DNA of 64,000 bases. Origin: an uncultured Alphaproteobacteria bacterium (GTDB lineage Bacteria > Pseudomonadota > Alphaproteobacteria > RF32 > CAG-239). This document shows, one piece after another, positions 1 to 38,016 of the stretch. Below the pieces are notes generated by a model. The model did no database searches. It saw nothing but the letters and a program-made list of their open reading frames with translations, and was not told where the DNA came from. Position 1 is the first letter of the stretch; each line of letters opens with the position of its first letter. A program made the position numbers and the translations under genes. The stretch is taken from NCBI GenBank assembly GCA_944391495.1, contig CALXTU010000001.1:59981-123980 (forward strand), in the 5' to 3' direction.

Positions 1-1
1 G

Positions 2-826
2 CCGAATGACATCAAGCTGGTGGCCAAATACATCAACGAGCAAAATGCCCGTTTGTCGCGTCAGGTGGCCATTTCGGTTAAGATTATGCAAGTTACGGTT
101 GATGACAGCGACAACTACGGACTTGACCTGAGAGCCACTTTTGATGACGGCGTCAGCTCTATCGGTATTACCGGAACTCAGGGAATTTCTGCCGAGGATA
201 TGACCTCGTCGCTGACCTGGGGTGTCATTAAAAACAATTGGACGGCCGATGCCATTATGCAGGCTATATCCCAGAAAAACCGTACGTCTCTGATTACCAG
301 CGGTACGGTTACAACCTTAAACAACAAGCCGGCGCCGATTCAGGTTACGCAGAAGCAAAACTATATCTCGGAGATGACCAAAACCAACAACGGTACCGAC
401 GGTACGAACTATGATATCTCGGTGACCACGGAGGAAATCGAAACCGGTTTTACCCTTGATGTTTTGCCGCGTATTCTGGAGCATGGCCGGATGCTGGTTA
501 TGTTCAATATGACGCTTTCGGATCTGTTGTCGCTGGAGCGCGTCAGCTTTGGTAACGAGGATGAAAACCAGTATATTCAAAACCCGATTGTCGAATCCCG
601 CGCTTTTACTCAGGAAGTCGCCATGACATCGGGAGAGTCGCTGATTTTAACCGGCTATGAGAGAGCCTCAACCGAGACCGACAAAACCGGAACCGGTTCG
701 GCGGATAATTCGCTGCTCGGAGGAACAGCTGCTGCCGAGAGAAGCCGGAATATTCTGGTTATTGTGTTGACGCCGGTTGTTTTGGAAACGCCGCTTTCGC
801 CGGAAACAAGAATGAGCATGAATTAA
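2..826 (+). CDS. Secretin (GspD/PilQ/PilN-R64 family), C-terminal part; gene starts upstream of the window
   Basis: Open frame with no stop back to nt 2. C-terminal hydrophobic/amphipathic block ...SRNILVIVLTPVVLE matches the conserved secretin C-terminal motif. First gene of a pilus/T2SS-like operon. Confidence 0.6.
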   Translation, partial: PNDIKLVAKYINEQNARLSRQVAISVKIMQVTVDDSDNYGLDLRATFDDGVSSIGITGTQGISAEDMTSSLTWGVIKNNWTADAIMQAISQKNRTSLITSGTVTTLNNKPAPIQVTQKQNYISEMTKTNNGTDGTNYDISVTTEEIETGFTLDVLPRILEHGRMLVMFNMTLSDLLSLERVSFGNEDENQYIQNPIVESRAFTQEVAMTSGESLILTGYERASTETDKTGTGSADNSLLGGTAAAERSRNILVIVLTPVVLETPLSPETRMSMN

Positions 827-849
827 CCACCTGACAGGAGCAAGCGGAA

Positions 850-2172
850 GTGCTGGAAGACGCAAAACTTTTAGATGAAGATTACGATGAAAGTTCCGGG
901 AAGCGGACATGGGGCACGTCGATAAACGTTGACGGCGTCAATTACGCGACCAGTCTTTTCTGGCAGCCGCTGCAAAATTCCGGCGATTATCTGCAGGAAG
1001 TCGAGGAAGCGTCAAATAGTATTCTTGAAGGTGCCGACCTGTTTTGTATTAAAGGCGGTAAGGCGCCGCAGTTCGGTATCTGCGTTTCGCACGAGGGTTA
1101 CAGAAGCGGTGAAACGGTGGCGGCGGTTGCGCTGGTAACGGCACTGTCCAACGTATCGTCTTTCGTGGCGGTGTTTAAAACGTCCGAGGGCTGGTGGTAT
1201 ACCTGCGTGCGCAACGATATTATCCTGTCTGACGGCGATATGCTGTTTTTGAATGAGGAAGAGGCCAAAAATCAGTTTATGTCGATGATGGCCGTTCCGG
1301 ACTGGGGAAAGAAAATTGCCCCCAAAGAATGGGGTATTGAAGAAACCGAAGAGCTCGATTTGGGCGAATTGATTGCCCGTGGTGCCAAGATTAAGCTGCA
1401 AAAGATAAAAGGGCTGCGCGGCTCCAAGCTGATTATGGTTGTCGTTATTTCGGCGGTTGTCGGATTGTGGCTGGTATCAAGCCTGATTGACAAACTGTTC
1501 CTCACTCCGGCAAAACGACCGGTGGTGGTTCCGGTGCGACCGAAAGTCATACAGCAGGTTGCGGTTAAAGAAGTTCCGAAACCGTGGGAAGAAATTAAAA
1601 ATCCGGTTCAGTTTATGCAAGAATGTTACGACGGCATTACCAAACTGGCAACAATTATGCCGCCGGGCTGGAAAATCGGCGTTATCAGCTGCTCGGGTTC
1701 GGCCGCGGCAACTTCGTGGACAAGAGAGGTCGGACCTTTGTCGTGGGCAGATGCAGCCATGAAAAACTCCGGACTGGAGCTTGCGGGATATTCGTTTGAT
1801 GCGAGCGGAAATTCGATGACGGCGTCGCTGCCGCTTAAGCCGGCCGAAACGCTGACGTCGCCGCCGGAAAAGAACATGACGGATCTGCGCAATGCCGTTA
1901 ATAACGAGTTTCAGTCCTTAGGACTGCCGATTTCGCTGGGCGAGGAAACGGTAAAATCTGCGGCACCGGCTCCGGCTGCCGCCAGGGGACCGCGGGCCGC
2001 ACCGGCCGCAGCCGAAGTGTTTAGGGCTTTAACGTTTAATTTTAATTCACCGCACAGTCCGCTGACCTGGATGCCTTTGTTAACAAAATATTCAGGTCTT
2101 GAAATTAGGATAATTACATATTCCCCAGACTCTGATGTTTGGCATTATGAGGGAGCTATCTATGTTTTATAA
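850..2172 (+). CDS. Bitopic inner-membrane assembly protein, GspL/BfpC/PilO(R64)-like
   Basis: GTG start. Single central TM (LIMVVVISAVVGLWLVSSL) with ~190-aa cytoplasmic N-domain and ~225-aa periplasmic C-domain, the GspL-type topology. Sits between secretin and ATPase genes. Confidence 0.4.
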   Translation: MLEDAKLLDEDYDESSGKRTWGTSINVDGVNYATSLFWQPLQNSGDYLQEVEEASNSILEGADLFCIKGGKAPQFGICVSHEGYRSGETVAAVALVTALSNVSSFVAVFKTSEGWWYTCVRNDIILSDGDMLFLNEEEAKNQFMSMMAVPDWGKKIAPKEWGIEETEELDLGELIARGAKIKLQKIKGLRGSKLIMVVVISAVVGLWLVSSLIDKLFLTPAKRPVVVPVRPKVIQQVAVKEVPKPWEEIKNPVQFMQECYDGITKLATIMPPGWKIGVISCSGSAAATSWTREVGPLSWADAAMKNSGLELAGYSFDASGNSMTASLPLKPAETLTSPPEKNMTDLRNAVNNEFQSLGLPISLGEETVKSAAPAPAAARGPRAAPAAAEVFRALTFNFNSPHSPLTWMPLLTKYSGLEIRIITYSPDSDVWHYEGAIYVL

Positions 2173-3505
2173 AATGAGAAATATTTTATTGGTAACATTG
2201 TCCTGTGTTCTGGCTTTCCCGGCGGGAGCGCTTAAAGCTCAGGGTTTGGTTTCTTTATCCGAAGAGGCCATGTTTGACGACGGGCTGGACACGGGAGACG
2301 AGCTTCCGGATCTGGGGCAGCCGGCCAAACCGACAGATGCCGACCACAGTAAGGCGCCGGCCGATGACACGGCTGAAATACCGCTGATTCAGCCTAAAGC
2401 AGCTCCGGCCCCGGTAACAGCGCCCAAACCGGCAGCAGCACCGGCAATTCCGACACCTCCGGCAACCACGGCGGCCTCCGGCGGTGATGCGGCAATAAAT
2501 TTGTTCGGCAATTCGGCGGAAGAAGAGGATTTTTCCAACAGCGACCTGTTTACCCAGATGTCCGACCTGGAAAAAAGAACGGCACTTTTGAATCTGGAAC
2601 TGCGTCGCGAGAAGCTGCAAAACGAGATTGAAGCGGTTAAAAACCAAAGACGGCAGGCTTTGCAGCAGGAAAAAGACAAAATTGAACAGCAGCGCCTTAA
2701 AAACATAGAGTTTGAAAAAGAGCAGGAGCAGAAAGTTTTGGTTGAACAGCAGAAACTGCGCGATTTGGACATTCAGTTTGAAACCCTGCGGCAGGAGAAA
2801 CTGCTCGGTTCTTATAAAAACTATATGCTGGAAGAAGTTCAGAAATGGATTGCCAACAACGGCCAGTTTTATAAACAGATTGACGAACTGCGGCAGTCCA
2901 AAAGAGACCTGACGGCAAATATGAAGGCTAAGATGAAAGCAGTGCAGGACGCCGCGCGGCAGGCACAGCAGGACTATACACTCAAGGTTAACGGCTATAC
3001 GAAAGAAATTAAAGACCTGAGGGCGCAGATTAATGTTTTGCGCAACCGTATTGCCTCCATGGAAAAAGAGCAGGAAGCCATGCTGCAGAATCCGTTTGCC
3101 AATGCAGAGCCTCAGGCTCAGAACGTTACGACAACGGTCAGCGACGATATATCCGCCGATGACAGCGTCACCAAAGAGCCGGTTGAGACCGATTTGTCCA
3201 AGCTTTATGCGGTGACGGAAATCCGCGGCCAGGGCGGCGAACTCATCGCCAAGCTGATTAACAAAAACGGTACGGCCTTTTATGTTAAAAGAGGAACGGC
3301 CCTGCAGACGGGACACGTCATTACCGACATTACCTCAACTTTTGTTGCGGCGGAAAAAGATGGCGAAAAGAAATATCTGTATTTCTCTGCCGGCGGAATT
3401 GTTCCGGTCGAAACGACAAAGTTTGAGCTTGATGCCGGGGCTGTTCCGGCGGCTGCCACTACCGAAAACAATACTTCGGGCGGACCGGTCGGCGGGAGTT
3501 TGTAG
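2162..3505 (+). CDS. PilP-like secretin-binding periplasmic protein with signal peptide, Pro/Ala-rich linker and long coiled-coil
   Basis: GAGGGAG RBS before ATG 2162. Signal peptide MRNILLVTLSCVLAFPAGALKA. Pro/Ala-rich low-complexity region, then about 200 aa of Q/E/K/R heptad-like coiled-coil. C-terminal block LYAVTEIRGQGGELIAKLINKNGTAFYVKRGTALQTGHVITDI matches the PilP/GspC HR-domain pattern. Confidence 0.45.
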   Translation: MFYKMRNILLVTLSCVLAFPAGALKAQGLVSLSEEAMFDDGLDTGDELPDLGQPAKPTDADHSKAPADDTAEIPLIQPKAAPAPVTAPKPAAAPAIPTPPATTAASGGDAAINLFGNSAEEEDFSNSDLFTQMSDLEKRTALLNLELRREKLQNEIEAVKNQRRQALQQEKDKIEQQRLKNIEFEKEQEQKVLVEQQKLRDLDIQFETLRQEKLLGSYKNYMLEEVQKWIANNGQFYKQIDELRQSKRDLTANMKAKMKAVQDAARQAQQDYTLKVNGYTKEIKDLRAQINVLRNRIASMEKEQEAMLQNPFANAEPQAQNVTTTVSDDISADDSVTKEPVETDLSKLYAVTEIRGQGGELIAKLINKNGTAFYVKRGTALQTGHVITDITSTFVAAEKDGEKKYLYFSAGGIVPVETTKFELDAGAVPAAATTENNTSGGPVGGSL

Positions 3506-3529
3506 CCTCAACCAGCACGGGATTTATCC

Positions 3530-5209
3530 ATGGCCGAAGAAGATACAGAAAATACTGACAACACTCCGGCAGCAGCATCATCCGGTCAAGATGCTGCTGC
3601 GGCGTCTTCCGGTCAACCGACAACGGCCGAAACAGGCGGCGGCTCCATTAATGAGATTTACTTTTCCAACGGCAACCGGTTGTTAACCCTGCCGGGATCT
3701 TCGCTGGCGGTGAACGACGACACCCGCCGTTTGCTGGCTTTGTTCTCGGACGGGCGTTTTCTGGTTGTCGAATCGCACAAATTTGACGGACGCGTCTTAA
3801 GTTTTGAGGTTTTGGCCCGCAAAAAGAAGATGGCCATTGCCAAACCGACCTATGTTTCGCAAAACGAGCTCAACGCCATTTATTCCATCGGTGAGCGCGC
3901 TCAGGCGGCGGAAGAGGTTTCGGCCGATGCCGAACTTGACCAGCTGCAAATGCAGAAAGACTTTGTCAACGTAGTTGCCCGCGCCGCCAGCAAAAAGGTG
4001 TCGGATATTCACGTGGTGGTGGCAGACAGCACGGTGATTATGTTCCGTGTCAACGGTATGATGCAGGTTGAAATGGAATATAACAAAGAATGGGGCGAAT
4101 CTTTTGTGCGCGCGGCTTTTGCTTCGGCCGATATTTCCGACTCAAACTATGCACAAAACGAATTCCAAGGCGCGCAAAAGCTGGGTTCCACACCGTTGCG
4201 CGGCTCCAAGGGCAAATTGATGCTGCCGCACAACGTGCTGGCTATCCGTCTGCAGTTTAACCCGATTGCGTTCGGTTCGCAATATCTGGTTATGCGTCTG
4301 TTGTACGCCGATGACAATCCGGACGGCTCCGGCGATCTGGCAAGCTTAGGTTTCGGCCAGTTTGAAGAAGATTTGTTTTACCGGCTGCGCGCGGTGCCGG
4401 TAGGGTTGAGCATTATTGCCGGCCCGACGGGATCGGGAAAATCAACCACGCTGCAGCGCAACATGATTAAGCTGTTGCAGGAAAAGAACTATGAGCTTAA
4501 CCTGCTGACGGTGGAAGACCCGCCGGAGTATCCTATTCCCGGCGCCCGGCAGATGCCGGTTACCAACGCCAACACCGAAGAAGAAAAAGCCGAGCAATTT
4601 ACCAAAGCCCTGTCGGCGGCGCTGCGATCCGACCCGGACGTTATTATGGTGGGCGAAATCCGCGCGCTGGCGGCGGCGCAGCTGACGTTTCAGGGCGCGC
4701 TTTCCGGCCACGGCATGTGGTCGACGCTGCACGCCAACTCGGCGCCGGCGATTATCAACCGTTTTCGTGATATGGGGGTTGAAACGTTTAAGCTTTTGGA
4801 CCCGGAATTAATCAAGGGGCTGATTTCGCAACGTTTGTTCCGCAAATTGTGCCCTCATTGCCGGATGTCGGTCAAAGAACGGCAGAATGATCCGTCTTTT
4901 CAGCGGCTGCGGACGGCGCTGGGGGATTTTGGCGTCGAGAATGCGTTTGTGCGCGGTCCGGGCTGCAAATTCTGCAACAATACCGGTATTAAAGGGCGTA
5001 TGTGCGTGCCGGAAATTATTTTGCCGGACGCCACGTTTCTTGAACTGATGATTAAAGGCGAAACCCGTAAGGCTATTGACTACTGGACATCTGATTTGAA
5101 CGGACGTACCTTAAAAGAAGCGGCGATGGAGCGTATGCTCAAAGGCTTGATTGACCTGGACGAAGTTGAACGCTGGTGCGGCCTTTTGGACCAGAGGCCG
5201 GCGTATTAG
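3530..5209 (+). CDS. Type II/IV secretion ATPase, GspE/PilB/BfpD/TcpT family
   Basis: Walker A GPTGSGKST, Asp box and His box. C-terminal tetracysteine CPHC...CKFC characteristic of GspE/PilB-type (not Tad/VirB11-type) ATPases. Confidence 0.9.
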   Translation: MAEEDTENTDNTPAAASSGQDAAAASSGQPTTAETGGGSINEIYFSNGNRLLTLPGSSLAVNDDTRRLLALFSDGRFLVVESHKFDGRVLSFEVLARKKKMAIAKPTYVSQNELNAIYSIGERAQAAEEVSADAELDQLQMQKDFVNVVARAASKKVSDIHVVVADSTVIMFRVNGMMQVEMEYNKEWGESFVRAAFASADISDSNYAQNEFQGAQKLGSTPLRGSKGKLMLPHNVLAIRLQFNPIAFGSQYLVMRLLYADDNPDGSGDLASLGFGQFEEDLFYRLRAVPVGLSIIAGPTGSGKSTTLQRNMIKLLQEKNYELNLLTVEDPPEYPIPGARQMPVTNANTEEEKAEQFTKALSAALRSDPDVIMVGEIRALAAAQLTFQGALSGHGMWSTLHANSAPAIINRFRDMGVETFKLLDPELIKGLISQRLFRKLCPHCRMSVKERQNDPSFQRLRTALGDFGVENAFVRGPGCKFCNNTGIKGRMCVPEIILPDATFLELMIKGETRKAIDYWTSDLNGRTLKEAAMERMLKGLIDLDEVERWCGLLDQRPAY

Positions 5210-5226
5210 GATAAGGATCGGAAATT

Positions 5227-6363
5227 ATGGCTGACGAAGAAGCTCTTAAGAGAAAACATCAATCAAAATCGCTGCAGGCAGCGATGAAAAAATTGAACAA
5301 GGCAGAAGAATATTATGCCCGGCTGATTATTCAGTTTTCAAACAAAACGCGGCTGAAGCTTTATCGCAAGATTGCCTCGCTGATGCGCAACCGCTTTTCG
5401 TTGATGGACGCTTTGGATATGCTGCACGACAGCGCATCAAACGGCGGCAAAAACCCCGGCGAACCGCTGGCGATTGCCATTGCCGCGTGGGGGCGCTCGC
5501 TCAACAACGGTAAAACTTTTTCCGAGGCGCTGAAAGGCTGGGCGCCGGACCGCGAACGTCTGATGCTTTCGGTGGGCGATGTCTCTGACCTGGAAGGCGC
5601 GTTGATGAACCTGATTAAAGTAACCGAAGGATCTACCAAAATGATCCGTCCGATTATCGGAGCGATTTCTTACCCGAGCTTTCTGATGATGATGGCGGTT
5701 TTGATTATTTACGCCATCGGCGTTTACATGGTGCCGCCGATGATGGACGCGGCGCCGAACGTCCGCTGGCGCGGGCTGGCTAAGAATCTGGTGGATTTGT
5801 CCGGCTGGATTAAAGACAACTGGCTGATTGCCTTTGCAGCGCTGCCGATTCTTATGGCTGTCATTTATTTTACCATCAGTATCTGGACCGGCAAAATCCG
5901 CGCTTTGTTTGACAATATTCCGCCATGGTCGCTGTATAAAAGCTTTGTCGGCATCAGCTGGCTGCTGGCGATGGCGGCGCTGATCAAGGGCGGCACGCCG
6001 GTTTCGACCGCGATGCGGGCGCTGCGCCGCGATGCAACCCGTTATCTTAAAGAGCGGATTGACAAAACACTGATCTTCATCAATAACGGTGACAATTTGG
6101 GACAGGCATTGGCCAAAACGGGCCTGAATTTTCCGGAAAAAGAGTTGATTGACGATTTGAAGATTTATTCCGAACTGGATAATTTTGAAGAGGCGCTGGA
6201 CAACCTGGCCAACGAATGGCTGGAAGAATCCGTCTATTCAATTGAGGAAAAAGCCGGCGTTTTAAACATGGTTGCCCTGCTGGCCATCGGCGGCGTTATT
6301 GCCTGGGCGGTTATGGGAACCTTTGATATGCAAGACCAAATTACCAGCAGCATGGGGAGTTAG
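5227..6363 (+). CDS. Inner-membrane platform protein, GspF/PilC/BfpE family
   Basis: 378 aa with two repeated cytoplasmic domains (LMDALDMLHDSASNGGKNP...GKTFSEAL pattern) and three hydrophobic TM segments. Immediately follows the ATPase. Confidence 0.7.
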   Translation: MADEEALKRKHQSKSLQAAMKKLNKAEEYYARLIIQFSNKTRLKLYRKIASLMRNRFSLMDALDMLHDSASNGGKNPGEPLAIAIAAWGRSLNNGKTFSEALKGWAPDRERLMLSVGDVSDLEGALMNLIKVTEGSTKMIRPIIGAISYPSFLMMMAVLIIYAIGVYMVPPMMDAAPNVRWRGLAKNLVDLSGWIKDNWLIAFAALPILMAVIYFTISIWTGKIRALFDNIPPWSLYKSFVGISWLLAMAALIKGGTPVSTAMRALRRDATRYLKERIDKTLIFINNGDNLGQALAKTGLNFPEKELIDDLKIYSELDNFEEALDNLANEWLEESVYSIEEKAGVLNMVALLAIGGVIAWAVMGTFDMQDQITSSMGS

Positions 6364-6365
6364 GC

Positions 6366-6971
6366 ATGGACATCAAACAAAAACTCAACCAGATAAAACA
6401 TAAGCTGCAGCACCTGCTCCGGCAACGCGGCCGGTTGATTGCCGCGGCGGCCGGCTCGGCAGCGGTTGTCGTGATTGTTGCGGTGCTGATTATCGGCGGA
6501 CAGCAGGATATCGGCGCGCAGGAAGCCGGACAGCAGATTATCAAACTGGCACAAAACATTCGCAACCGCTATCAAACCCGGCCGGATTTCTGGGGACTGA
6601 GCACGGCGGAGGTTATCCGGCAGAAGATGTATCCGTTGAGCATGACGGCGGAAGGCGGAAAGCTGACCGGATATTTCGGCAACCGGGTGCAGGTGGGCGC
6701 TGATGCCTCCGGCACGGCAGTGATGCCGACGGTGCGACGATTTGTGATTGCCTATAACGGCCTCAACCGCAAACAGTGCCTGGCGCTGGGGACATATAAA
6801 TTTACGCGGGATTTTTGGCTGGGCGTCAGCGGTATGACGATTGAAGCAGAGGGCGCGCAACGGCTGTTTGACTGGAGTTCTAAGGAGCTGGCGTTGCCGG
6901 CGGCCAAAGATATTGTCGGGAAAATTTGCCGAAGCCAAAAAAACAATATTATTTTTCACTTTGAACAATGA
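6366..6971 (+). CDS. Bitopic periplasmic assembly protein, GspM/PilN/PilO-like topology
   Basis: GGGGAG RBS. Short basic cytoplasmic N-terminus, one TM (AAAAGSAAVVVIVAVLIIGG), ~150-aa periplasmic domain. Translationally coupled to the platform gene. Not a pilin: no Glu at +5. Confidence 0.35.
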   Translation: MDIKQKLNQIKHKLQHLLRQRGRLIAAAAGSAAVVVIVAVLIIGGQQDIGAQEAGQQIIKLAQNIRNRYQTRPDFWGLSTAEVIRQKMYPLSMTAEGGKLTGYFGNRVQVGADASGTAVMPTVRRFVIAYNGLNRKQCLALGTYKFTRDFWLGVSGMTIEAEGAQRLFDWSSKELALPAAKDIVGKICRSQKNNIIFHFEQ

Positions 6972-7132
6972 TATTTACCATTAATTAAGGGATTAATTCT
7001 ATACTGAAACCAACATATGACTAAAGTCATAGGCATGATATTGTGGATTATGACTAATGGCAGAATTGCCGAAAGCGATTTTCTTTGATAAGATGAAAGC
7101 ATAATAACGGCAATTTTATGAGGAGAAAGACC

Positions 7133-7753
7133 ATGACTATTTTATCAAGAACTGAGCAAACAGGCCGTTCGATGGTGGAGATGCTGGGCGTGCTGGCGAT
7201 TATCGGCGTGTTATCCGTCGGCGGTATTTCGGGTTATTCAAAAGCGATGGCCAAATATAAACTGACCAAGGCTCAGGATCAGATTACGATGTTGCTGATG
7301 AACATTCGTACCGCTTATGCTACCAGTCCGAGTTATAGCGGGTTGACTACAGCTGCCGTAGCCGCTTACAACATCGCTCCGGGTGAAATGATTGTCGGGA
7401 CGGCCTCGATTGGTGATTCTGGCGCCACCGGCTCTGCAACTCTTAACGGCGCTTTCGGTGGTGCAGTAAATGTTGCGTCACTGGGAGCTCGTGATTCTTA
7501 CTTCTATATTCAGATGCGTGCGTTGGCACCGGAGGCCTGCCGTTCTTTGGCATCTTCTGACTGGGGTGCAGACGGTTTGGTTATGATGTCTGTCGGTGCG
7601 GATGCAGCGGTAGCTGTTGCAGATGATGACGTTGACCAAACTTGTACATCAGGCGGTGATAACTTCTGTGCGGGAGATCTGCCTTTGGGTTTAGCTACTG
7701 CAGCATCTCAATGTGATAATGCAATTAACCAGATTACTTGGGTTTACTACTAA
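7133..7753 (+). CDS. Type IV prepilin (type IVb-like size, 206 aa)
   Basis: AGGAGAAAG RBS sits directly before ATG 7133; the ORF-track start 7118 lies inside this RBS. Leader MTILSRTEQTG then cleavage-site consensus G|RSMVEML with Glu at +5 and hydrophobic alpha1-N (GVLAIIGVLSVGG). Four Cys in the C-terminal half are consistent with a D-region disulfide. Confidence 0.8.
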   Translation: MTILSRTEQTGRSMVEMLGVLAIIGVLSVGGISGYSKAMAKYKLTKAQDQITMLLMNIRTAYATSPSYSGLTTAAVAAYNIAPGEMIVGTASIGDSGATGSATLNGAFGGAVNVASLGARDSYFYIQMRALAPEACRSLASSDWGADGLVMMSVGADAAVAVADDDVDQTCTSGGDNFCAGDLPLGLATAASQCDNAINQITWVYY

Positions 7754-7857
7754 TAGTATGCAAGAAAGCTCCTCAAGACTTGCCGGTTTTATACCGGCAA
7801 GTCTTTTGTGTGTTTTTTGACTGTTATGCTTGACGGAGGTGACGGTTTTTAAAGCGT

Positions 7858-8016
7858 GTCATGTTGAGCGGGAGCGAAACATCTTAGAGATTCTTCGGGA
7901 CTTGCGTCCCTCAGAATGACGACTAAAATGTCATGTTGAGGAGCAAGGCGCCGAAACATCTTAGAGATTCTTCGCTAACGCTCAGAATGACAGGGAAGTG
8001 ACGCTCGGAATGACGG
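7858..8016. repeat. Family-A palindromic repeat, two tandem units plus a partial third
   Basis: Units 7858-7920 and 7930-7991 share gtcatgttgag...gaaacatcttagagattcttcg...tcagaatgac. Unit 1 carries the GC hairpin gggac-ttgc-gtccc. Related copies at 10382, 10777, 21887 and 37956. Confidence 0.85.
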
Positions 8017-12763: not shown

Positions 12764-13504
12764 ATGCGACTTTTCGTATCAAAATTTTTGATGTTTTTGT
12801 TATTCTTGCTGATGCTGGTTCAGCCGGTTGAGGCTTCCGAATATCCGCGCTATGTCGATGATACGGAAGTTTGTACGGTGGCCGCACAGCAGTTTGAAAA
12901 AAAATACCAAATCAAAAAGCACCTTCTTTCTACCATTACCAATGTCGAATCCGGCCGCTGGAATCAGGCGCGCCAGAGAAATACGGCTTGGCCGTGGACG
13001 GTTAATGCCCAAGGAAAAGGCCGCTTTTTTGATACCAAACAAGAAGCCATTGCCGCCGTTAAACGCCTGCAGGCCAAGGGGGTAAAAAGCATTGATGTCG
13101 GTTGTATGCAGATTAATCTGGCTTATCATCCGGACGCTTTTGAAAACCTGGAAGAGGCTTTTAACCCGTATAAAAATATGGAATACGGCGCCAAGTTTTT
13201 GAAAAAGCTTTATGCCAAAAAAGGCAATGACTGGAACAAAGCCGCGACGGCTTATCACTCAAGCCTGCCGCGCAAGGCCAAGAAATATGCCCAGAGGCTG
13301 TCAAAGGCTTATCAGGGAATCGTTCAGGCCAGTCTGGAAAGAAAAAATGACAGAAAACCCGCCGCCGAAATTAAAAAGCTTGAAAAAAGCAAATTTTTGG
13401 CCGAAAATACCAGCCAGATTGAAGCAAAGGCCGCTGCGGCTGCCAATGCCTGGCGTGAGGCCAAACTGGCGGAATATCATCTGAGAAAGGCCAGACAACT
13501 CTAA
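12764..13504 (+). CDS. Lytic transglycosylase (SLT domain; VirB1/IagB/PilT-R64-like specialised type) with signal peptide and Lys/Ala-rich C-terminal tail
   Basis: Signal peptide. Catalytic TNVESGRWN...AWPWTVNAQG...IDVGCMQINLAYH matches the ES / GLMQ(I)N motifs of secretion-associated lytic transglycosylases. Confidence 0.75.
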   Translation: MRLFVSKFLMFLLFLLMLVQPVEASEYPRYVDDTEVCTVAAQQFEKKYQIKKHLLSTITNVESGRWNQARQRNTAWPWTVNAQGKGRFFDTKQEAIAAVKRLQAKGVKSIDVGCMQINLAYHPDAFENLEEAFNPYKNMEYGAKFLKKLYAKKGNDWNKAATAYHSSLPRKAKKYAQRLSKAYQGIVQASLERKNDRKPAAEIKKLEKSKFLAENTSQIEAKAAAAANAWREAKLAEYHLRKARQL

Positions 13505-21886: not shown

Positions 21887-21948
21887 TCATGTTGAGCGAA
21901 AGCGAAACATCTGAGAGATTCTTCGGGACTATCGTCCCTCAGAATGAC
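21887..21948. repeat. Family-A palindromic repeat unit (plus partial unit to ~21975)
   Basis: gtcatgttgagcgaaagcgaaacatctgagagattcttcggg-actat-cgtccctcagaatgac. Preceded by a second hairpin catcgggagg-aatg-cctcccgatg (21848-21871). Confidence 0.85.
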
Positions 21949-24390: not shown

Positions 24391-27300
24391 ATGACTAATA
24401 CATCTAACTGGCCAAGAGAAGTCATTGATATTGAACAATTAAAAACCGTTTTCGACGATAACAATATTAATATAACTGATGAATTGGACATTGTTTTGCG
24501 GCAAAGGGCTCATGTCGATTTACCTTACGGCAAACGCTACCAGCATGTAAGATTTGCCACAATTCTGGGCGCTGTTTATGTTCCTGACAGTATTTATAAA
24601 GAAAAAGAACGCGAAAAACACTTAAAAAAGCTCCGCCGCTATTATGACCAAAATGCGACAAAATCTTATATTAAACTGGAAACGGCCGAATTTTACTGTA
24701 ATTTTCTGGATCAAATCAAAGACAGCATTGAACAGCGGCACCCCGGAGTCAAATTACCCTTGATATCTATTGATAAGCCTTTGGAAAAGCAAGAACATTT
24801 CCATGGATCTGGCTCAAAAAAAGAGAAAAAGACCAAAACCCTTAATGATAAAATCGTTAAAATAGACCGTTATCAGGTTATTAATCCTTCGTGTTTACAA
24901 AAACTATCAGCTGATGAACTGTCCAAGCTGCTTGACGAGGTTTTTCAGAAGCGTAGTGCAGATCTCACCTCTACTGCCGATAAAGATAAACTGCTTAATC
25001 TTATATCCAATATTAAATATGCCTTTGCTTATGCACAAAATGACGGCAAAAGTTTAGAACAAAATTCCCATTTAAATCAGGCGCGACGGCTATATAACTA
25101 CCGAGCCGGACAAAACCTCACTCCGCAAACCCAAAAGCTTTATGTTACTTATATGGAAGCGGTTGAGGAAAGACTGAGAAACGAGCACCCTGATTATCAG
25201 GTTGTTTATGATGAAATTCCGTTGCTTTATGAAAACAACCAACCAGAACCCAGACCAGGACCAGGACCAGGACCAGGACCAGGACCAGGACCAGGACCGG
25301 GACCGGAACCGGGGCCTGAGCCTAAGCCGAGACCGGGGCCTGAGCCGAATAAAAAAACTCTGGACGGCTATACCTCGGACGAATGGACCCAGCTGTTGGA
25401 TTCGGCGGTAAAAACGGCTGTTGTTGAAGAAGAAAATCTGACTGAAGGAATTGCCGTTACTTCACTTAAAGAAGTTTTGGGCAAAAAATTTCCCGACAAT
25501 TTTGATACAATGTCTTTGGACGAGATAGAAAGCGAGGTTTTGGCCAAACTCAATCCGGCACAAATAGCACAGTTTAATATTAAAGTTACCGAAAAGGCAC
25601 AAACACTGGCTGAATGCCTGCCGCCGCACTTTTTGACCTTTACGGCCAAACAAACCGATGCGGCTCTGGGCAAAAACGGTATTGACGATGACCTCAAACA
25701 GACGCTAACCGGGCAGCAGGAAATTTTGCGCAGTGCCATAAAAGATATTATTACGCAATATCATACCGGTGTTGTTATTGATGCCGATAATGCGGCGGGT
25801 GTTTATGACGGTCTGAAAGAGATGCTCGCCTATGCCAAGGCTCATAATCTCGGTGAAGCGGAAAAAATCAGCGGTATTTTGGCCAAACTGGAAGAAAGCA
25901 TTAAAGAATATGATGCCAACAACGGTTTGGACAAAGTTACCGAGAACAATCTCGAGGCTGTCAACAAAGCTTATGACACGACGAAAACAGATGTTGACGG
26001 TATCCTTGCAAAAAGCGACTGGGAAACGCAGTTTACAAATATTCTGGATGATGATACTAAAGAAATATTTAAGCAAATCACTTTTCCGGAAACAACAGAC
26101 GAAAACGGAAACAAAACTCCGGCTGAAGAGAACAAAAAGCTTTTTGTCGAATTGATTTTGAACAAAGCCGCCCAACAGACCGCCTGCTCATCGCATGATA
26201 AATCCGGCAATGATTTAAAAAGTGTTTTAAACGAACAAATCAAAGAAACTGCCGTTGCCGAAATCTTTACATTAATGGCTGCGGAAGAGGCTGTTAAAAT
26301 TAACGGAGACCCTAATCTCCGCGCTGAATTGACGGTATCGCCCGGCGATAATATTGCGGCAAAGAAACAAAAACTCGCGGCTTATATATCAAACAAGCCG
26401 GCGGCCACCGCTGTCAGCAAAGATGCTCTTGCCGGTTATTTTGCCGCTGCGGTCAATCGTCAGTCGCTATTTGCCAACCGCCTGGCAACCAAGCTGAATA
26501 ACCGCGGTGCCGGCGTGCTCAAAAAAATGTGGCAACCTTTCCAAAAGCTTGATAAAACCTGTATCAACAGATTTGGCCTGCTTTATACCGTTCCTCGCGG
26601 CATTTTCAAAAATTCACTGCAAAATCTGCCTTGGAGCGCATTAAACGCAGTTGCCAGAGTTGCCGCTTTTTCACAAGTCGGCACCCCGTGGGGAATGGCC
26701 TGTGTTGCCGGATATGCCGCTTATAGCCTGGGAACAACGGCAATCCGCATGATCAGACAATATAAAAAGATCAAAAAACAAGATAAGAGTATGACTCCCG
26801 GAAAATATCTTAAAAACAACTGGTCCGCCATGGCTTTGTCGGTGGTCGGAACGGCGGTATCGGTTATTCCGGGGCTGAGTACCGGCAGCGAATTTTTTAA
26901 AGGCGGACTGGAATGGATGAGAAATACCGGCATGCTTGAACGAACCGGTTTTCTGGGAATGACAAAAGCCAGTGCCGGCCTTATCGGTGCCGGGATGTTG
27001 GATTCGACCATCCGGGGCGCGAAAGCTCATCATGCAGCCGGTAAAGGATGGTTTAAATCTATTGGGGCAGCATTAGGATCTTCGGTTCTTTCCAGTGCGG
27101 CAGGTATTGGTGTGGGCATGGGCTGTGCGACCGGTGCCAACGAATTATTAAATTCCGGCATGAATTTGTTTGGAGATGTCAAAACACAAAATATTCCTAC
27201 CGAATCTTATGAACCTGACAATCCGGATCATTCCAAAGAACAAATTTCTCCCGGAGAATATGATCCTGCTAATCCGAGCCATAGCAAAGAGGCTATACCG

Positions 27301-28332
27301 ACAGACAAACTGGGTATCGGAACAGCCGAAGATTTAACCAAATTGTCCCCTGATGAACTGGCGGCCAGAGGTTTGGTCAGAGAGGATGCCTCGGCTAATG
27401 AACCCGGTGCCTTTTTGACCAGGGAAGAAGTCAGGGCTTATACGACTCATGATTACAGCCAGGAGGAACATAATTTTGCCGAAATGCGCAATTCAGATCC
27501 CCGCTTCAGCGAATTCCTCGAGAGATATCATGTTGCATCTGACTTGCAGGATCCCGCTAATCCGGACAGCGTTTCCGCAACAGCTACGGATAAGATGGCT
27601 CAGGCCATTGACGCCATTGCCGACAAGCATCCTGAAATGCAAAGTGATATGGGTAACGGCAAGTTGCAGAATAATACACAAATGCTTATGTATAAATTGA
27701 CGCAAATGGCTTATCTGGCACCCAATACCGATGCCATGACAACCGACGGAATCCCGGTCGGCGAACAATTCGGCTATCAAAACGAAGATGGTTCGTATAC
27801 GACCTATATGGATTTGATTAAAGAGGCTGTCAATGACGGAAAATTCAGCAACCCTGAAAAAGCCTATGAGGTTTTGATGAAGATTGAAGACCATGTCGGC
27901 GGACAATTGGATAACAGTGTAAACGATATGGGTAAAGTCGATATGTTCGGCAACCAGATTGAAACAGGCAGAAACGTTAATTCCTATCAGGAAAACGATG
28001 CCGGTTATACGAAGCATGAACACCCTGGACAACAGGCCGAATATGAGAAGATTTCCCGGTTTGAAAAGACTACGGAAACAACTTATATGCCTTATAATCC
28101 GTCAATTGATCTTTATAAACAGGTTACCGAGGGAAAAGAGGTGCTGGCCCGTGTTATGGGTAATCACGGCAGATACGAAGAAGGACAGCTTAAACCTGAT
28201 GTTGTCAAAAAAATGCCGGGCATTTCGCAAAATGCCGAAAACAGCAATAATTCCGGCACAACGAATTCTAGAAAAGGTAACATATTTACCAGAATTTTCC
28301 GCCGCGGCGGTAATGGTAACGGAAGACAATAA
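24391..28332 (+). CDS. Giant hypothetical protein (1313 aa) with Pro-Gly repeat linker and central multi-helix hydrophobic domain; effector-like candidate
   Basis: AT-rich ORF inserted between dnaK and dnaJ, opposite in orientation to both. In-frame PGPGPG repeat from the (ccagga)7 microsatellite. About 170 aa of Gly/Ala-rich hydrophobic helices around residues 730-900. Duplicated 13-aa motif YEPDNPDHSKEQI / YDPANPSHSKEAI. No signal peptide. Confidence 0.6.
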   Translation: MTNTSNWPREVIDIEQLKTVFDDNNINITDELDIVLRQRAHVDLPYGKRYQHVRFATILGAVYVPDSIYKEKEREKHLKKLRRYYDQNATKSYIKLETAEFYCNFLDQIKDSIEQRHPGVKLPLISIDKPLEKQEHFHGSGSKKEKKTKTLNDKIVKIDRYQVINPSCLQKLSADELSKLLDEVFQKRSADLTSTADKDKLLNLISNIKYAFAYAQNDGKSLEQNSHLNQARRLYNYRAGQNLTPQTQKLYVTYMEAVEERLRNEHPDYQVVYDEIPLLYENNQPEPRPGPGPGPGPGPGPGPGPEPGPEPKPRPGPEPNKKTLDGYTSDEWTQLLDSAVKTAVVEEENLTEGIAVTSLKEVLGKKFPDNFDTMSLDEIESEVLAKLNPAQIAQFNIKVTEKAQTLAECLPPHFLTFTAKQTDAALGKNGIDDDLKQTLTGQQEILRSAIKDIITQYHTGVVIDADNAAGVYDGLKEMLAYAKAHNLGEAEKISGILAKLEESIKEYDANNGLDKVTENNLEAVNKAYDTTKTDVDGILAKSDWETQFTNILDDDTKEIFKQITFPETTDENGNKTPAEENKKLFVELILNKAAQQTACSSHDKSGNDLKSVLNEQIKETAVAEIFTLMAAEEAVKINGDPNLRAELTVSPGDNIAAKKQKLAAYISNKPAATAVSKDALAGYFAAAVNRQSLFANRLATKLNNRGAGVLKKMWQPFQKLDKTCINRFGLLYTVPRGIFKNSLQNLPWSALNAVARVAAFSQVGTPWGMACVAGYAAYSLGTTAIRMIRQYKKIKKQDKSMTPGKYLKNNWSAMALSVVGTAVSVIPGLSTGSEFFKGGLEWMRNTGMLERTGFLGMTKASAGLIGAGMLDSTIRGAKAHHAAGKGWFKSIGAALGSSVLSSAAGIGVGMGCATGANELLNSGMNLFGDVKTQNIPTESYEPDNPDHSKEQISPGEYDPANPSHSKEAIPTDKLGIGTAEDLTKLSPDELAARGLVREDASANEPGAFLTREEVRAYTTHDYSQEEHNFAEMRNSDPRFSEFLERYHVASDLQDPANPDSVSATATDKMAQAIDAIADKHPEMQSDMGNGKLQNNTQMLMYKLTQMAYLAPNTDAMTTDGIPVGEQFGYQNEDGSYTTYMDLIKEAVNDGKFSNPEKAYEVLMKIEDHVGGQLDNSVNDMGKVDMFGNQIETGRNVNSYQENDAGYTKHEHPGQQAEYEKISRFEKTTETTYMPYNPSIDLYKQVTEGKEVLARVMGNHGRYEEGQLKPDVVKKMPGISQNAENSNNSGTTNSRKGNIFTRIFRRGGNGNGRQ
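25255..25296 (+). repeat. Perfect hexanucleotide microsatellite (ccagga)x7, in frame, within the giant ORF; degenerate ccggga/ccggaa/ccgggg units extend to ~25350
   Basis: Read directly: ccaggaccaggaccaggaccaggaccaggaccaggaccagga. Confidence 0.95.
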
Positions 28333-37955: not shown

Positions 37956-38016
37956 GTCATTCTGAGGGACGAACGTCCCGAAGAATCTCTTAGATGTTTC
38001 GCTCCGCTCAACATGA
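37956..38016. repeat. Family-A palindromic repeat unit, inverted orientation (plus partial unit to ~38057)
   Basis: gtcattctgaggg-acgaa-cgtcccgaagaatctcttagatgtttcgctccgctcaacatgac is the reverse complement of the 7858 and 21887 units. Confidence 0.85.

Follow-up and report, generated by a model that had tools for sequence, protein, structure and literature searches.

The stretch analysed here, hereafter the window, comprises 64,000 nucleotides of contig CALXTU010000001.1 (positions 59,981 to 123,980) from an uncultured Alphaproteobacteria bacterium, and its first 7.8 kb carry genes for a putative type IVb (T4b) pilus. The listing of open reading frames (ORFs) confirmed seven intact ORFs in this segment, all on the plus strand, which overlap or are separated by gaps of 2-25 nt, with the single exception of a 161-nt gap 5′ of the pilin gene. 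The features are as follows.

2-826 (feature 1..826), plus strand: secretin C-terminus, 274 codons, cut by the window start
850..2172, plus strand: PilO2/BfpC-family bitopic protein, 440 aa
2162..3505, plus strand: PilP/BfpU-like periplasmic protein, 447 aa (start given by the ORF lister, 2135)
3530..5209, plus strand: BfpD-like extension ATPase, 559 aa
5227..6363, plus strand: BfpE-like polytopic platform, 378 aa, two T2SSF repeats
6366..6971, plus strand: p201, a membrane-anchored pilin paralogue, 201 aa
7133..7753, plus strand: major prepilin, 206 aa (start given by the ORF lister, 7118)
7775..7815, plus strand: intrinsic terminator with a perfect 13-bp stem, a 5-nt loop and a T-rich tail, 22 nt past the pilin stop

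The terminator closes the operon; murI comes next, beginning 320 nt beyond the stop codon of the pilin gene and preceded by a promoter-like site of its own (TTGACA-18-TAATAT). At the 5′ side the operon extends beyond the window. Contig L001, whose sequence agrees with the window at every one of the 900 nt aligned and whose position 6472 corresponds to window position 1, shows the full secretin of 533 aa (L001:5696-7297) and, 5′ of it on the same strand, two further genes, encoding a 245-aa lipoprotein with a TcpQ domain and a 587-aa protein (p587). Because L001 adds these two genes to the window-cut secretin, the operon comprises nine genes, of which the window contains seven, and is not the compact seven-gene machine with one copy of each structural class that a preliminary description of this DNA had proposed.

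Core components of the pilus machine

The same description had recognised a type IVb-pilus machine encoded in the order secretin, PilO2/BfpC-like protein, PilP-like protein, ATPase, platform and pilin. Searches of Pfam and NCBIfam bore this out, with the ATPase (T2SSE), the platform (T2SSF) and the secretin (PF00263, TIGR02520) all matching families of type II secretion systems (T2SS) and type IV pili. Overall, the description was partly confirmed: the cluster is real and well above chance, and three corrections apply, to its extent, to what the 201-aa protein is and to which known system stands closest. As references we used the bfp operon of plasmid pMAR2 from enteropathogenic Escherichia coli (EPEC), which encodes the bundle-forming pilus (BFP), a Bosea megaplasmid, an E. 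coli plasmid, the IncI1 plasmid ColIb-P9 (NC_002122) and the gsp operon of E. coli K-12. Bit scores against these references, obtained with phmmer for the platform and secretin and with family hidden Markov models (HMMs) for PilO2 and the pilin, were as follows.

ATPase: Bosea 339, E. coli plasmid 336, BfpD 314, GspE 158, IncI1 PilQ 148
Platform: Bosea 249, BfpE 216, IncI1 PilR 116
Secretin: Bosea 218, BfpB 201, IncI1 PilN 154
PilO2: Bosea PilO2 134 (2e-41), BfpC 75 (1e-23), IncI1 PilO not detected
TcpQ protein: Bosea 65, BfpG 62, IncI1 PilL 16 (weak), IncI1 PilM not detected
Pilin: BfpA 89 (9e-28), IncI1 PilS 40

The ATPase matched T2SSE (PF00437, 5e-64) in Pfam, and its translation shows a Walker A motif (GPTGSGKST) and the tetracysteine noted earlier (CPHC...CKFC). 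In a PDB search its best solved relative was BfpD (1.4e-92, 314 bits, residues 43-551), compared with 175 bits for PilF, 168 bits for GspE and a range of 140-175 bits for PilF, GspE and PilB. With its N-terminal domain and tetracysteine, the protein fits the BfpD/TcpT/PilQ group that marks T4b pili. The platform matched T2SSF (PF00482, 5.8e-24) in two stretches.

The part of the secretin inside the window matched PF00263 in Pfam (1.4e-14) and the PilN-type family TIGR02520 in NCBIfam (1.4e-55), and the full-length protein reached 278.5 bits with TIGR02520 (9e-83), just below the equivalog cut-off of 287.65. Its N-terminus, which lies outside the window on L001, carries a lipobox, as does the 245-aa upstream protein (LLAGC, likewise outside the window), which matched TcpQ (PF10671) at 57 bits against a cut-off of 27. 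Judged by sequence, the two constitute the pairing characteristic of T4b pili, a lipoprotein secretin of the PilN/BfpB/TcpC type and a TcpQ/BfpG-type partner.

The 440-aa protein, initially described as a GspL/BfpC-like bitopic protein, matched PAP_PilO (PF06864) at 65.2 bits (6.4e-18; cut-off 26.7) over profile positions 5-419 of 419, and this full-profile match and the match to BfpC uphold that description. A single transmembrane helix near residue 200 separates its cytoplasmic N-domain from a periplasmic C-domain; in the PilO2/BfpC family the N-domain has a cytoplasmic actin-like fold resembling that of GspL/EpsL (PMC3984277). We identify it as PilO2/BfpC, the bitopic stand-in for PilM/N/O that is another mark of T4b systems.

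From its N-terminus onwards, the 447-aa protein has a signal peptide, a linker rich in Pro and Ala, ~170 residues of coiled coil and, at the C-terminus, a PilP beta-domain, and its position in the operon is that of BfpU and PilP. Its own NCBIfam match to TIGR03021 (PilP) fell below the cut-off (4.4e-6), but 21 of 21 homologues from other species matched the same family (best 2.6e-10), in agreement with its earlier designation as PilP-like, and a family HMM matched IncI1 PilP at 1.5e-4. A profile of the C-terminal domain gave nothing meaningful against the PDB. In most species the homologues end in a conserved C-terminal tail, ...G(I/V)P(G/S)LG..M..R (alignment A5), which is absent from the window's sub-lineage, the same sub-lineage that is without a BfpF-like ATPase.

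Because the BFP and Bosea scores exceed the IncI1 and Gsp scores and the gene order equals bfpG-B-C-U-D-E, these sequence comparisons place the machine in the BFP branch of T4b pili, with the R64 thin pilus more distant and the T2SS further still. R64 had been put forward as the nearest model, yet BFP-type proteins score about twice as high as IncI1 ones.

Relationship to known systems

BFP is the best characterised match for six parts (BfpD, BfpE, BfpB, BfpG, BfpC and BfpA) and shares the core order G-B-C-U-D-E; relatives of the window species also have a BfpF-like ATPase (148 bits). The complete BFP order is bfpA-G-B-C-U-D-E-F-P-H-I-J-K-L, so that the pilin gene comes first there, whereas it is last in the window operon. 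BFP has a peptidase (BfpP), a transglycosylase (BfpH), minor pilins (BfpI/J/K) and BfpL, none of which is found in the window operon. The latter in turn begins with a gene for an OmpA-like protein and includes one for a pilin paralogue that cannot be cleaved, both of them additions to the BFP plan. The PilP/BfpU homologue has ~450 aa here and 165 aa in BFP, the window pilin differs by its 11-aa leader and Arg at +1, and the operon is chromosomal and lineage-wide, whereas BFP is plasmid-borne.

The highest-scoring annotated relatives are uncharacterised T4b clusters of Bosea sp. RAC05 pBSY19_1 and the Methylorubrum extorquens AM1 megaplasmid. The Bosea ATPase is 39% identical to that of the window, and the order TcpQ-secretin-PilO2-hypothetical protein-ATPase-platform recurs in Bosea and on the E. 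coli plasmid. Unlike the window operon, the Bosea cluster is plasmid-borne, has a retraction ATPase gene directly 3′ of the platform gene and encodes a PilV-type adhesin. The R64/ColIb-P9 (IncI1) thin pilus shares the order PilN-O-P-Q-R-S, a lipoprotein secretin, a PilS-family pilin and PilP, but the similarity is about half that to BFP, PilO and PilM were not detected, and the PilV shufflon adhesin, PilL, PilT, PilU and conjugation genes of IncI1 are not found in the window operon, the weak TcpQ-PilL match aside.

The toxin-coregulated pilus (TCP) of Vibrio cholerae and colonization factor antigen III (CFA/III) of enterotoxigenic E. coli (ETEC) resemble the window system in T4b pilin fold and in having a TcpQ-domain partner of a lipoprotein secretin, and TCP, like the window species, has no retraction ATPase. 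In the TCP and CFA/III operons there are genes for a dedicated peptidase, for a secreted factor and for a single large minor pilin of class III (TcpB or CofB); the window operon has none of the three. PAPI-1 and Tfp7, chromosomal or ICE relatives of the R64 thin pilus, share with the window operon the lack of a dedicated peptidase, and Tfp7 uses a TcpQ-type protein. The T2SS (GspC-O) has an ATPase, platform and secretin of the same superfamilies, and the likeness of the BfpC/PilO2 N-domain to GspL/EpsL extends the resemblance (PMC3984277). The ATPase, however, scored only 158 bits with GspE versus 314 with BfpD, and GspC, G, H, I, J, K, L and M of E. coli K-12 had no match among the operon proteins.

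Distribution and conservation of the operon

One genome per species was scanned, which yielded 265 loci with a relative of the ATPase; all figures on conservation and synteny refer to the best 80 of these 265 (78-96% ATPase identity). The 80 loci all come from uncultured Alphaproteobacteria of human, deer, sheep, rabbit and chicken gut, among them 'Proteobacteria bacterium CAG:495' and 'Candidatus Scatocola'. The order p587-TcpQ-secretin-PilO2-PilP-ATPase-platform-p201-pilin is identical in every locus long enough to show it, while the flanking genes differ by species. The preliminary description had supposed that such a system is not a standard feature of such genomes, but it is syntenic in the 80 best-matching species genomes of this gut alphaproteobacterial group. 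Identities to the window proteins were as follows.

ATPase: 78-96%
Platform: 71-91%
Secretin: 54-88%
PilO2: 48-79%
TcpQ protein: 50-77%
PilP: 32-62%
Pilin: 27-66% (globular part)
p201: 22-62%
p587: 28-59%

This graded conservation points to purifying selection acting on the motor while the exposed subunit diversifies, and it fits a vertically inherited operon for a functional surface fibre rather than a sporadic island. We found no paper in the literature linking the CAG:495/'Ca. Scatocola' group with type IV pili.

The major pilin

The pilin matched the PilS family (PF08805) at 35.6 bits (1.1e-8; cut-off 22) and also the Bundlin family, with a weak match to TcpA (1.8e-4); matches of its N-terminus to pseudopilin models in NCBIfam were weak. 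We preferred the start at 7133 over that at 7118 because a GAGGAG Shine-Dalgarno sequence lies 8 nt 5′ of ATG 7133, and gene callers also chose the equivalent start on other contigs. The resulting leader, MTILSRTEQTG, has 11 residues, as had been described for a pilin of T4b size, and leaders of 10-13 residues occur in relatives. This length falls between T4a and classical T4b leaders, short of the about 15-30 aa of the latter. The mature N-terminus reads RSMVEMLGVLAIIGVLS, with Arg at +1 and Glu at +5, and the mature pilin has 195 aa. A large pilin with the PilS/bundlin/TcpA fold and a residue other than Phe at +1 is typical of T4b pili, and the predicted protein is of this kind.

The first 17 mature residues read RSM(V/I)EMLGVLAI(I/V)GVLS in nearly all species, with rare extra substitutions at isolated positions, and Gly-1, Glu+5 and a hydrophobic mature N-terminus are kept in every species. 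Each species carries between one and four pilin copies in tandem, the window a single one. Tandem pilins with near-identical N-termini and divergent globular domains were seen in L018, L019, L021, L025, L046, L050, L077 and other loci, at about 13.4-15.8 kb. Divergence of this kind suggests antigenic or functional diversification.

p201 is a pilin paralogue with a membrane anchor

The product of the gene between platform and pilin, p201, had been described as GspM/PilO-like. We rejected this candidate on the evidence of Pfam, a family HMM, AlphaFold2 (AF2) modelling with Foldseek, and hhalign. The protein matched PF08805 at 7e-5, above the PilS threshold, and Bundlin (PF05307) at 5e-4, just short of threshold; the family HMM built from 79 orthologues matched BfpA at 3e-12. 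The AF2 model (predicted local distance difference test, pLDDT, 86) shows a beta-domain after a helix that spans residues 3-68, and the five PDB entries ranked highest by Foldseek were all T4b pilins (S. Typhi PilS 3fhu, TcpA, CofA). In hhalign, p201 aligned with the adjacent pilin over the whole globular domain (96% probability, E 3.6e-9, 26% identity). The type IVb pilin fold and this paralogy replace the earlier assignment.

Among the 79 orthologues, the N-terminus consists of a basic segment of 20-30 residues and then a transmembrane helix, both variable, and shows no conserved G(-1) or E(+5) and no class III motif. The globular domain contains two invariant Cys residues. A profile search of 1.84e9 representative proteins returned 343 matches at E 1e-3 or better. 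In 96 of the 97 best matches the class III motif is absent under the motif pattern used for the scan, and the weaker matches are mostly true prepilins, including this clade's own pilins. The family itself comprises about 100 clusters at 50% identity among these 1.84 billion proteins. p201 looks like a duplicated pilin whose prepilin signal was swapped for an ordinary membrane anchor; having such an anchor and no prepilin signal, it should therefore remain in the inner membrane.

p587 has a C-terminal domain with a predicted OmpA-like fold

The first gene product of the operon, p587, has an N-terminal hydrophobic segment, ~440 residues predicted to be disordered and a strongly conserved C-terminal domain of ~90 residues. 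It matched no family, and a sequence profile of the C-terminal domain found nothing in the PDB. Its 470 database homologues are all unnamed alphaproteobacterial proteins. The structure was read from AF2 models of full-length database homologues, in which the C-terminal domain (pLDDT 76-88) has a beta-alpha-beta-alpha-beta-beta topology. The top 50 Foldseek matches of this domain were all OmpA, Pal, MotB or OprF domains, with E-values down to 1.5e-5. An invariant Asp and Arg (D65 and R76 in alignment A3) lie 11 residues apart, compared with roughly 15 expected of the diaminopimelate-binding pair. We infer from the models an OmpA-like fold and putative peptidoglycan binding. Neither p587 nor p201 has a homologue in the Bosea cluster detectable by HMM.

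Components not encoded near the operon

The preliminary description had listed prepilin peptidase, minor pilins and a retraction ATPase as missing from the window. This holds for the window, but a retraction ATPase is present in most relatives. An A24 prepilin peptidase was found neither in the 64-kb window, nor in 6.5 kb upstream, nor within 10 kb of the operon in the 80 species. Two home-built A24 HMMs (BfpP, PilU, GspO and the E. coli plasmid A24 enzyme) were run with --max on every ORF from the window and from the 80 loci; no match came below E 0.6, and the precomputed Pfam lists contained no Peptidase_A24. The strictly conserved cleavage motif of the pilin implies a candidate peptidase encoded elsewhere in the genome. 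Such T4b clusters have precedent, with PAPI-1 using PilD and Tfp7 of B. pseudomallei also being without its own enzyme (PMC3984277).

No class III minor pilin lies next to the operon, where a motif scan (G-x4-E) yielded only the major pilin in its one to four copies. No further protein of pilin fold is present apart from p201, in which this motif is missing. A search for a second pilin or minor-pilin locus with the conserved N-terminus as protein query gave short fragments only, and the one fragment that was traced (P0187) derives from a copy of this operon with frameshifts, located on a contig of 1.08 Mb. On that contig, L095 (JBKXTK010000001.1, 1.08 Mb), the operon lies fragmented into numerous short ORFs, two each for the ATPase and the pilin, which is probably an assembly frameshift error and not real decay.

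A BfpF-like retraction ATPase is absent from the whole 64-kb window and 6.5 kb upstream and also from the nearest relatives, whereas 45 of 66 relatives with enough downstream sequence encode one (323 aa, 148 bits against BfpF). The gene mostly lies directly 3′ of the pilin genes and, in a few species, several kb off or on the opposite strand. The simplest reading is that it was lost or relocated in the window's sub-lineage. In L022:14228-20280 the BfpF-like ATPase gene is followed by genes for a TlpA-like thioredoxin, a vWA protein, a PP2C-like protein and a Ser/Thr kinase and by murI; the whole block from BfpF-like gene to kinase gene is absent from the window, and 44 other loci have equivalent regions.

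Assembly model and alternative explanations

We consider it likely that the nine genes form the chromosomal assembly operon of a T4b pilus of the BFP lineage, passed on vertically in a family of uncultured Alphaproteobacteria from gut and rumen. On the model of the homologous BFP, TCP and R64 systems, the prepilin would be inserted in the inner membrane and cleaved by a putative A24 peptidase encoded elsewhere. A BfpD-like hexameric ATPase, docked on the actin-like domain of PilO2/BfpC and on the BfpE-like platform, would polymerise the pilin, the ATPase, platform and PilO2 together forming the presumed inner-membrane motor. The PilP/BfpU-like protein, with its unusually long coiled coil, would bridge the periplasm to the lipoprotein secretin, which would assemble with the TcpQ/BfpG-like lipoprotein. 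In BFP, BfpB and BfpG form such an outer-membrane complex (PMC12531336). p587 might tie the complex to peptidoglycan through its OmpA-like domain, and the uncleavable p201 might be retained in the inner membrane, either for docking or priming of the first pilins or as a basal anchor. In this species the fibre is probably static or passively retracting because no BfpF-like retraction ATPase is encoded nearby. By analogy with BFP, TCP and CFA/III, its role is most likely adhesion or auto-aggregation in the gut.

Several points weigh against this interpretation. The organisms are uncultured, and the system is known here through its genes. With no peptidase in ~70 kb around the operon or near it in 80 species, maturation of the pilin is presumptive, and no class III minor pilin was found although known T4b systems need at least one (TcpB, CofB, BfpI-K). 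The function suggested for the fibre is an analogy, and what p201 could do in docking, priming or basal anchoring, and what p587 would do in the operon, are read from predicted fold and gene position.

More tentatively, and as an idea that we hold to be rather doubtful, p201 and p587 might define a distinct T4b sub-architecture in which the inner-membrane-fixed p201 replaces class III minor pilins in nucleation or anchoring, in the manner of FlaF/FlaG. FlaF and FlaG have an uncleaved membrane anchor and are fixed parts of the archaellum, not filament subunits. The likeness to p201 is a functional speculation that turns on a filament-subunit-like protein with an uncleaved N-terminal anchor serving as a fixed machine part; there is no detectable homology, and FlaG was an insignificant fold match (E 0.72). 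If the idea is true, the machine dispenses with dedicated minor pilins and, in this species, with a motor for retraction as well.

Secretion, conjugation, DNA uptake and gene decay were weighed as alternatives, and for each of them the defining components are missing from this locus. The preliminary description had also raised a T2SS-like machine, whose short pseudopilus would push soluble proteins through the secretin, for instance the large unannotated ones of the window. Export of a soluble factor does occur in some T4b pili (TcpF by TCP, CofJ by CFA/III), the window species is without a retraction ATPase, and large effector-like ORFs are present in the window. Nevertheless, we regard this explanation as improbable: the operon encodes no homologue of GspC, GspG-K, GspL or GspM, p201 having been rejected as GspM; the ATPase score with GspE is half that with BfpD, and the secretin is of the PilN/BfpB type. 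In none of the 80 species does the operon contain a cargo gene, and a 1313-aa protein of the window has no signal peptide and so no periplasmic route for T2SS-type export. The hypervariable pilin, in one to four tandem copies, instead fits an exposed fibre.

A pilus for DNA uptake (competence), or a receptor or uptake fibre in place of an adhesin, seems slightly less probable again. Type IV pili of several classes bind DNA, but no ComEA, ComEC or DprA-type genes are linked to the operon, and DNA-uptake pili normally need retraction, for which the ATPase is missing here. Moreover, the closest characterised relatives (BFP, TCP, CFA/III) are aggregation or colonisation fibres.

More remote is a conjugative thin pilus of the R64 type that stabilises mating pairs for linked DNA transfer. 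The N-O-P-Q-R-S order is shared with IncI1 plasmids, and the nearest relatives have a VirB6/TrbL-like gene immediately upstream, but that gene is a divergent orphan absent beside the operon in most species. IncI1 scores are about half the BFP-type ones, with PilO and PilM not detected. Relaxase, Tra/Dot-Icm, PilV and shufflon genes are absent from the operon neighbourhood, where the recombinase is a housekeeping XerD, and the housekeeping surroundings and apparently vertical inheritance also speak against this reading.

Least probable of all is a decaying remnant, in which loss of the BfpF-like ATPase and the lack of a linked peptidase would mark an operon heading for inactivation: the tenth gene of most relatives is indeed missing here and in the nearest relatives, but the nine ORFs are unbroken and match the family-median length, the ATPase shares 89-96% identity with its counterparts in BfpF-less sister species, and TCP works without a retraction ATPase.

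The core of the machine is ordinary; what is unusual is p201, the OmpA-like p587 and the universal presence of the operon in an unstudied gut lineage. For the group that carries it, the uncultured CAG:495/'Ca. Scatocola' organisms of human, ruminant, rabbit and chicken guts, a strongly conserved BFP-like pilus offers a definite hypothesis on their attachment or aggregation in the gut. The hypervariable and sometimes multi-copy pilin could serve as a strain-level marker, and the p201 family, small and clearly bounded, could reveal how T4b priming or anchoring proceeds without canonical minor pilins. The range of the BFP lineage is extended beyond enteric Gammaproteobacteria and plasmids, and the understanding of type IV filaments is not overturned.

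Neighbouring genes and other features of the window

Upstream of the operon, an orphan VirB6/TrbL-like membrane protein of 670 aa (PF04610, 1.5e-6) is encoded at L001:671-2683 on the minus strand, adjoining xerD. The gene lies ~3.8-5.8 kb upstream of window position 1, is divergent from the operon and keeps this position only in the nearest relatives. The recombinase is XerD of the housekeeping type and not an island integrase. An origin of the operon in a genomic island or integrative and conjugative element was rejected in view of this recombinase, the absence of a flanking tRNA or integrase, a GC content that is barely raised and the synteny across species.

Downstream, a lytic transglycosylase of the SLT family (PF01464) is encoded at 12764-13504 of the window on the plus strand, 5 kb from the operon, with murI and genes for a histidine phosphatase, a patatin-like protein, a GIY-YIG protein, tRNA-Val and an FGase-family protein in between. 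An SLT enzyme is a usual companion in T4b operons (BfpH, PilT of R64); for the window gene a link to the pilus would be conjectural.

An intergenic repeat of ~75 nt (core CGAAACATCTTAGAGATTCTTCG) is dispersed over the window, with four matches compared with 0.01 expected by chance. Two tandem copies occupy 7857-8005, between the pilin terminator and murI, and the others lie at 21906-21925 (plus strand) and 37979-37998 (minus strand). In a related strain with an identical YidC (L004:1-127), a Fic-domain gene stands directly 5′ of murI in place of the pilin terminator and repeats, and the junction of operon and murI therefore varies among strains.

The 1313-aa protein is encoded at 24391-28332 on the plus strand, between dnaJ and dnaK. 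It has no signal peptide and no Pfam match, and a (PG)n / PEPGPEPKP repeat and a central block rich in transmembrane segments give it an effector-like look. Its length differs among strains, with 1284 aa in one case and 1198 aa on another contig.

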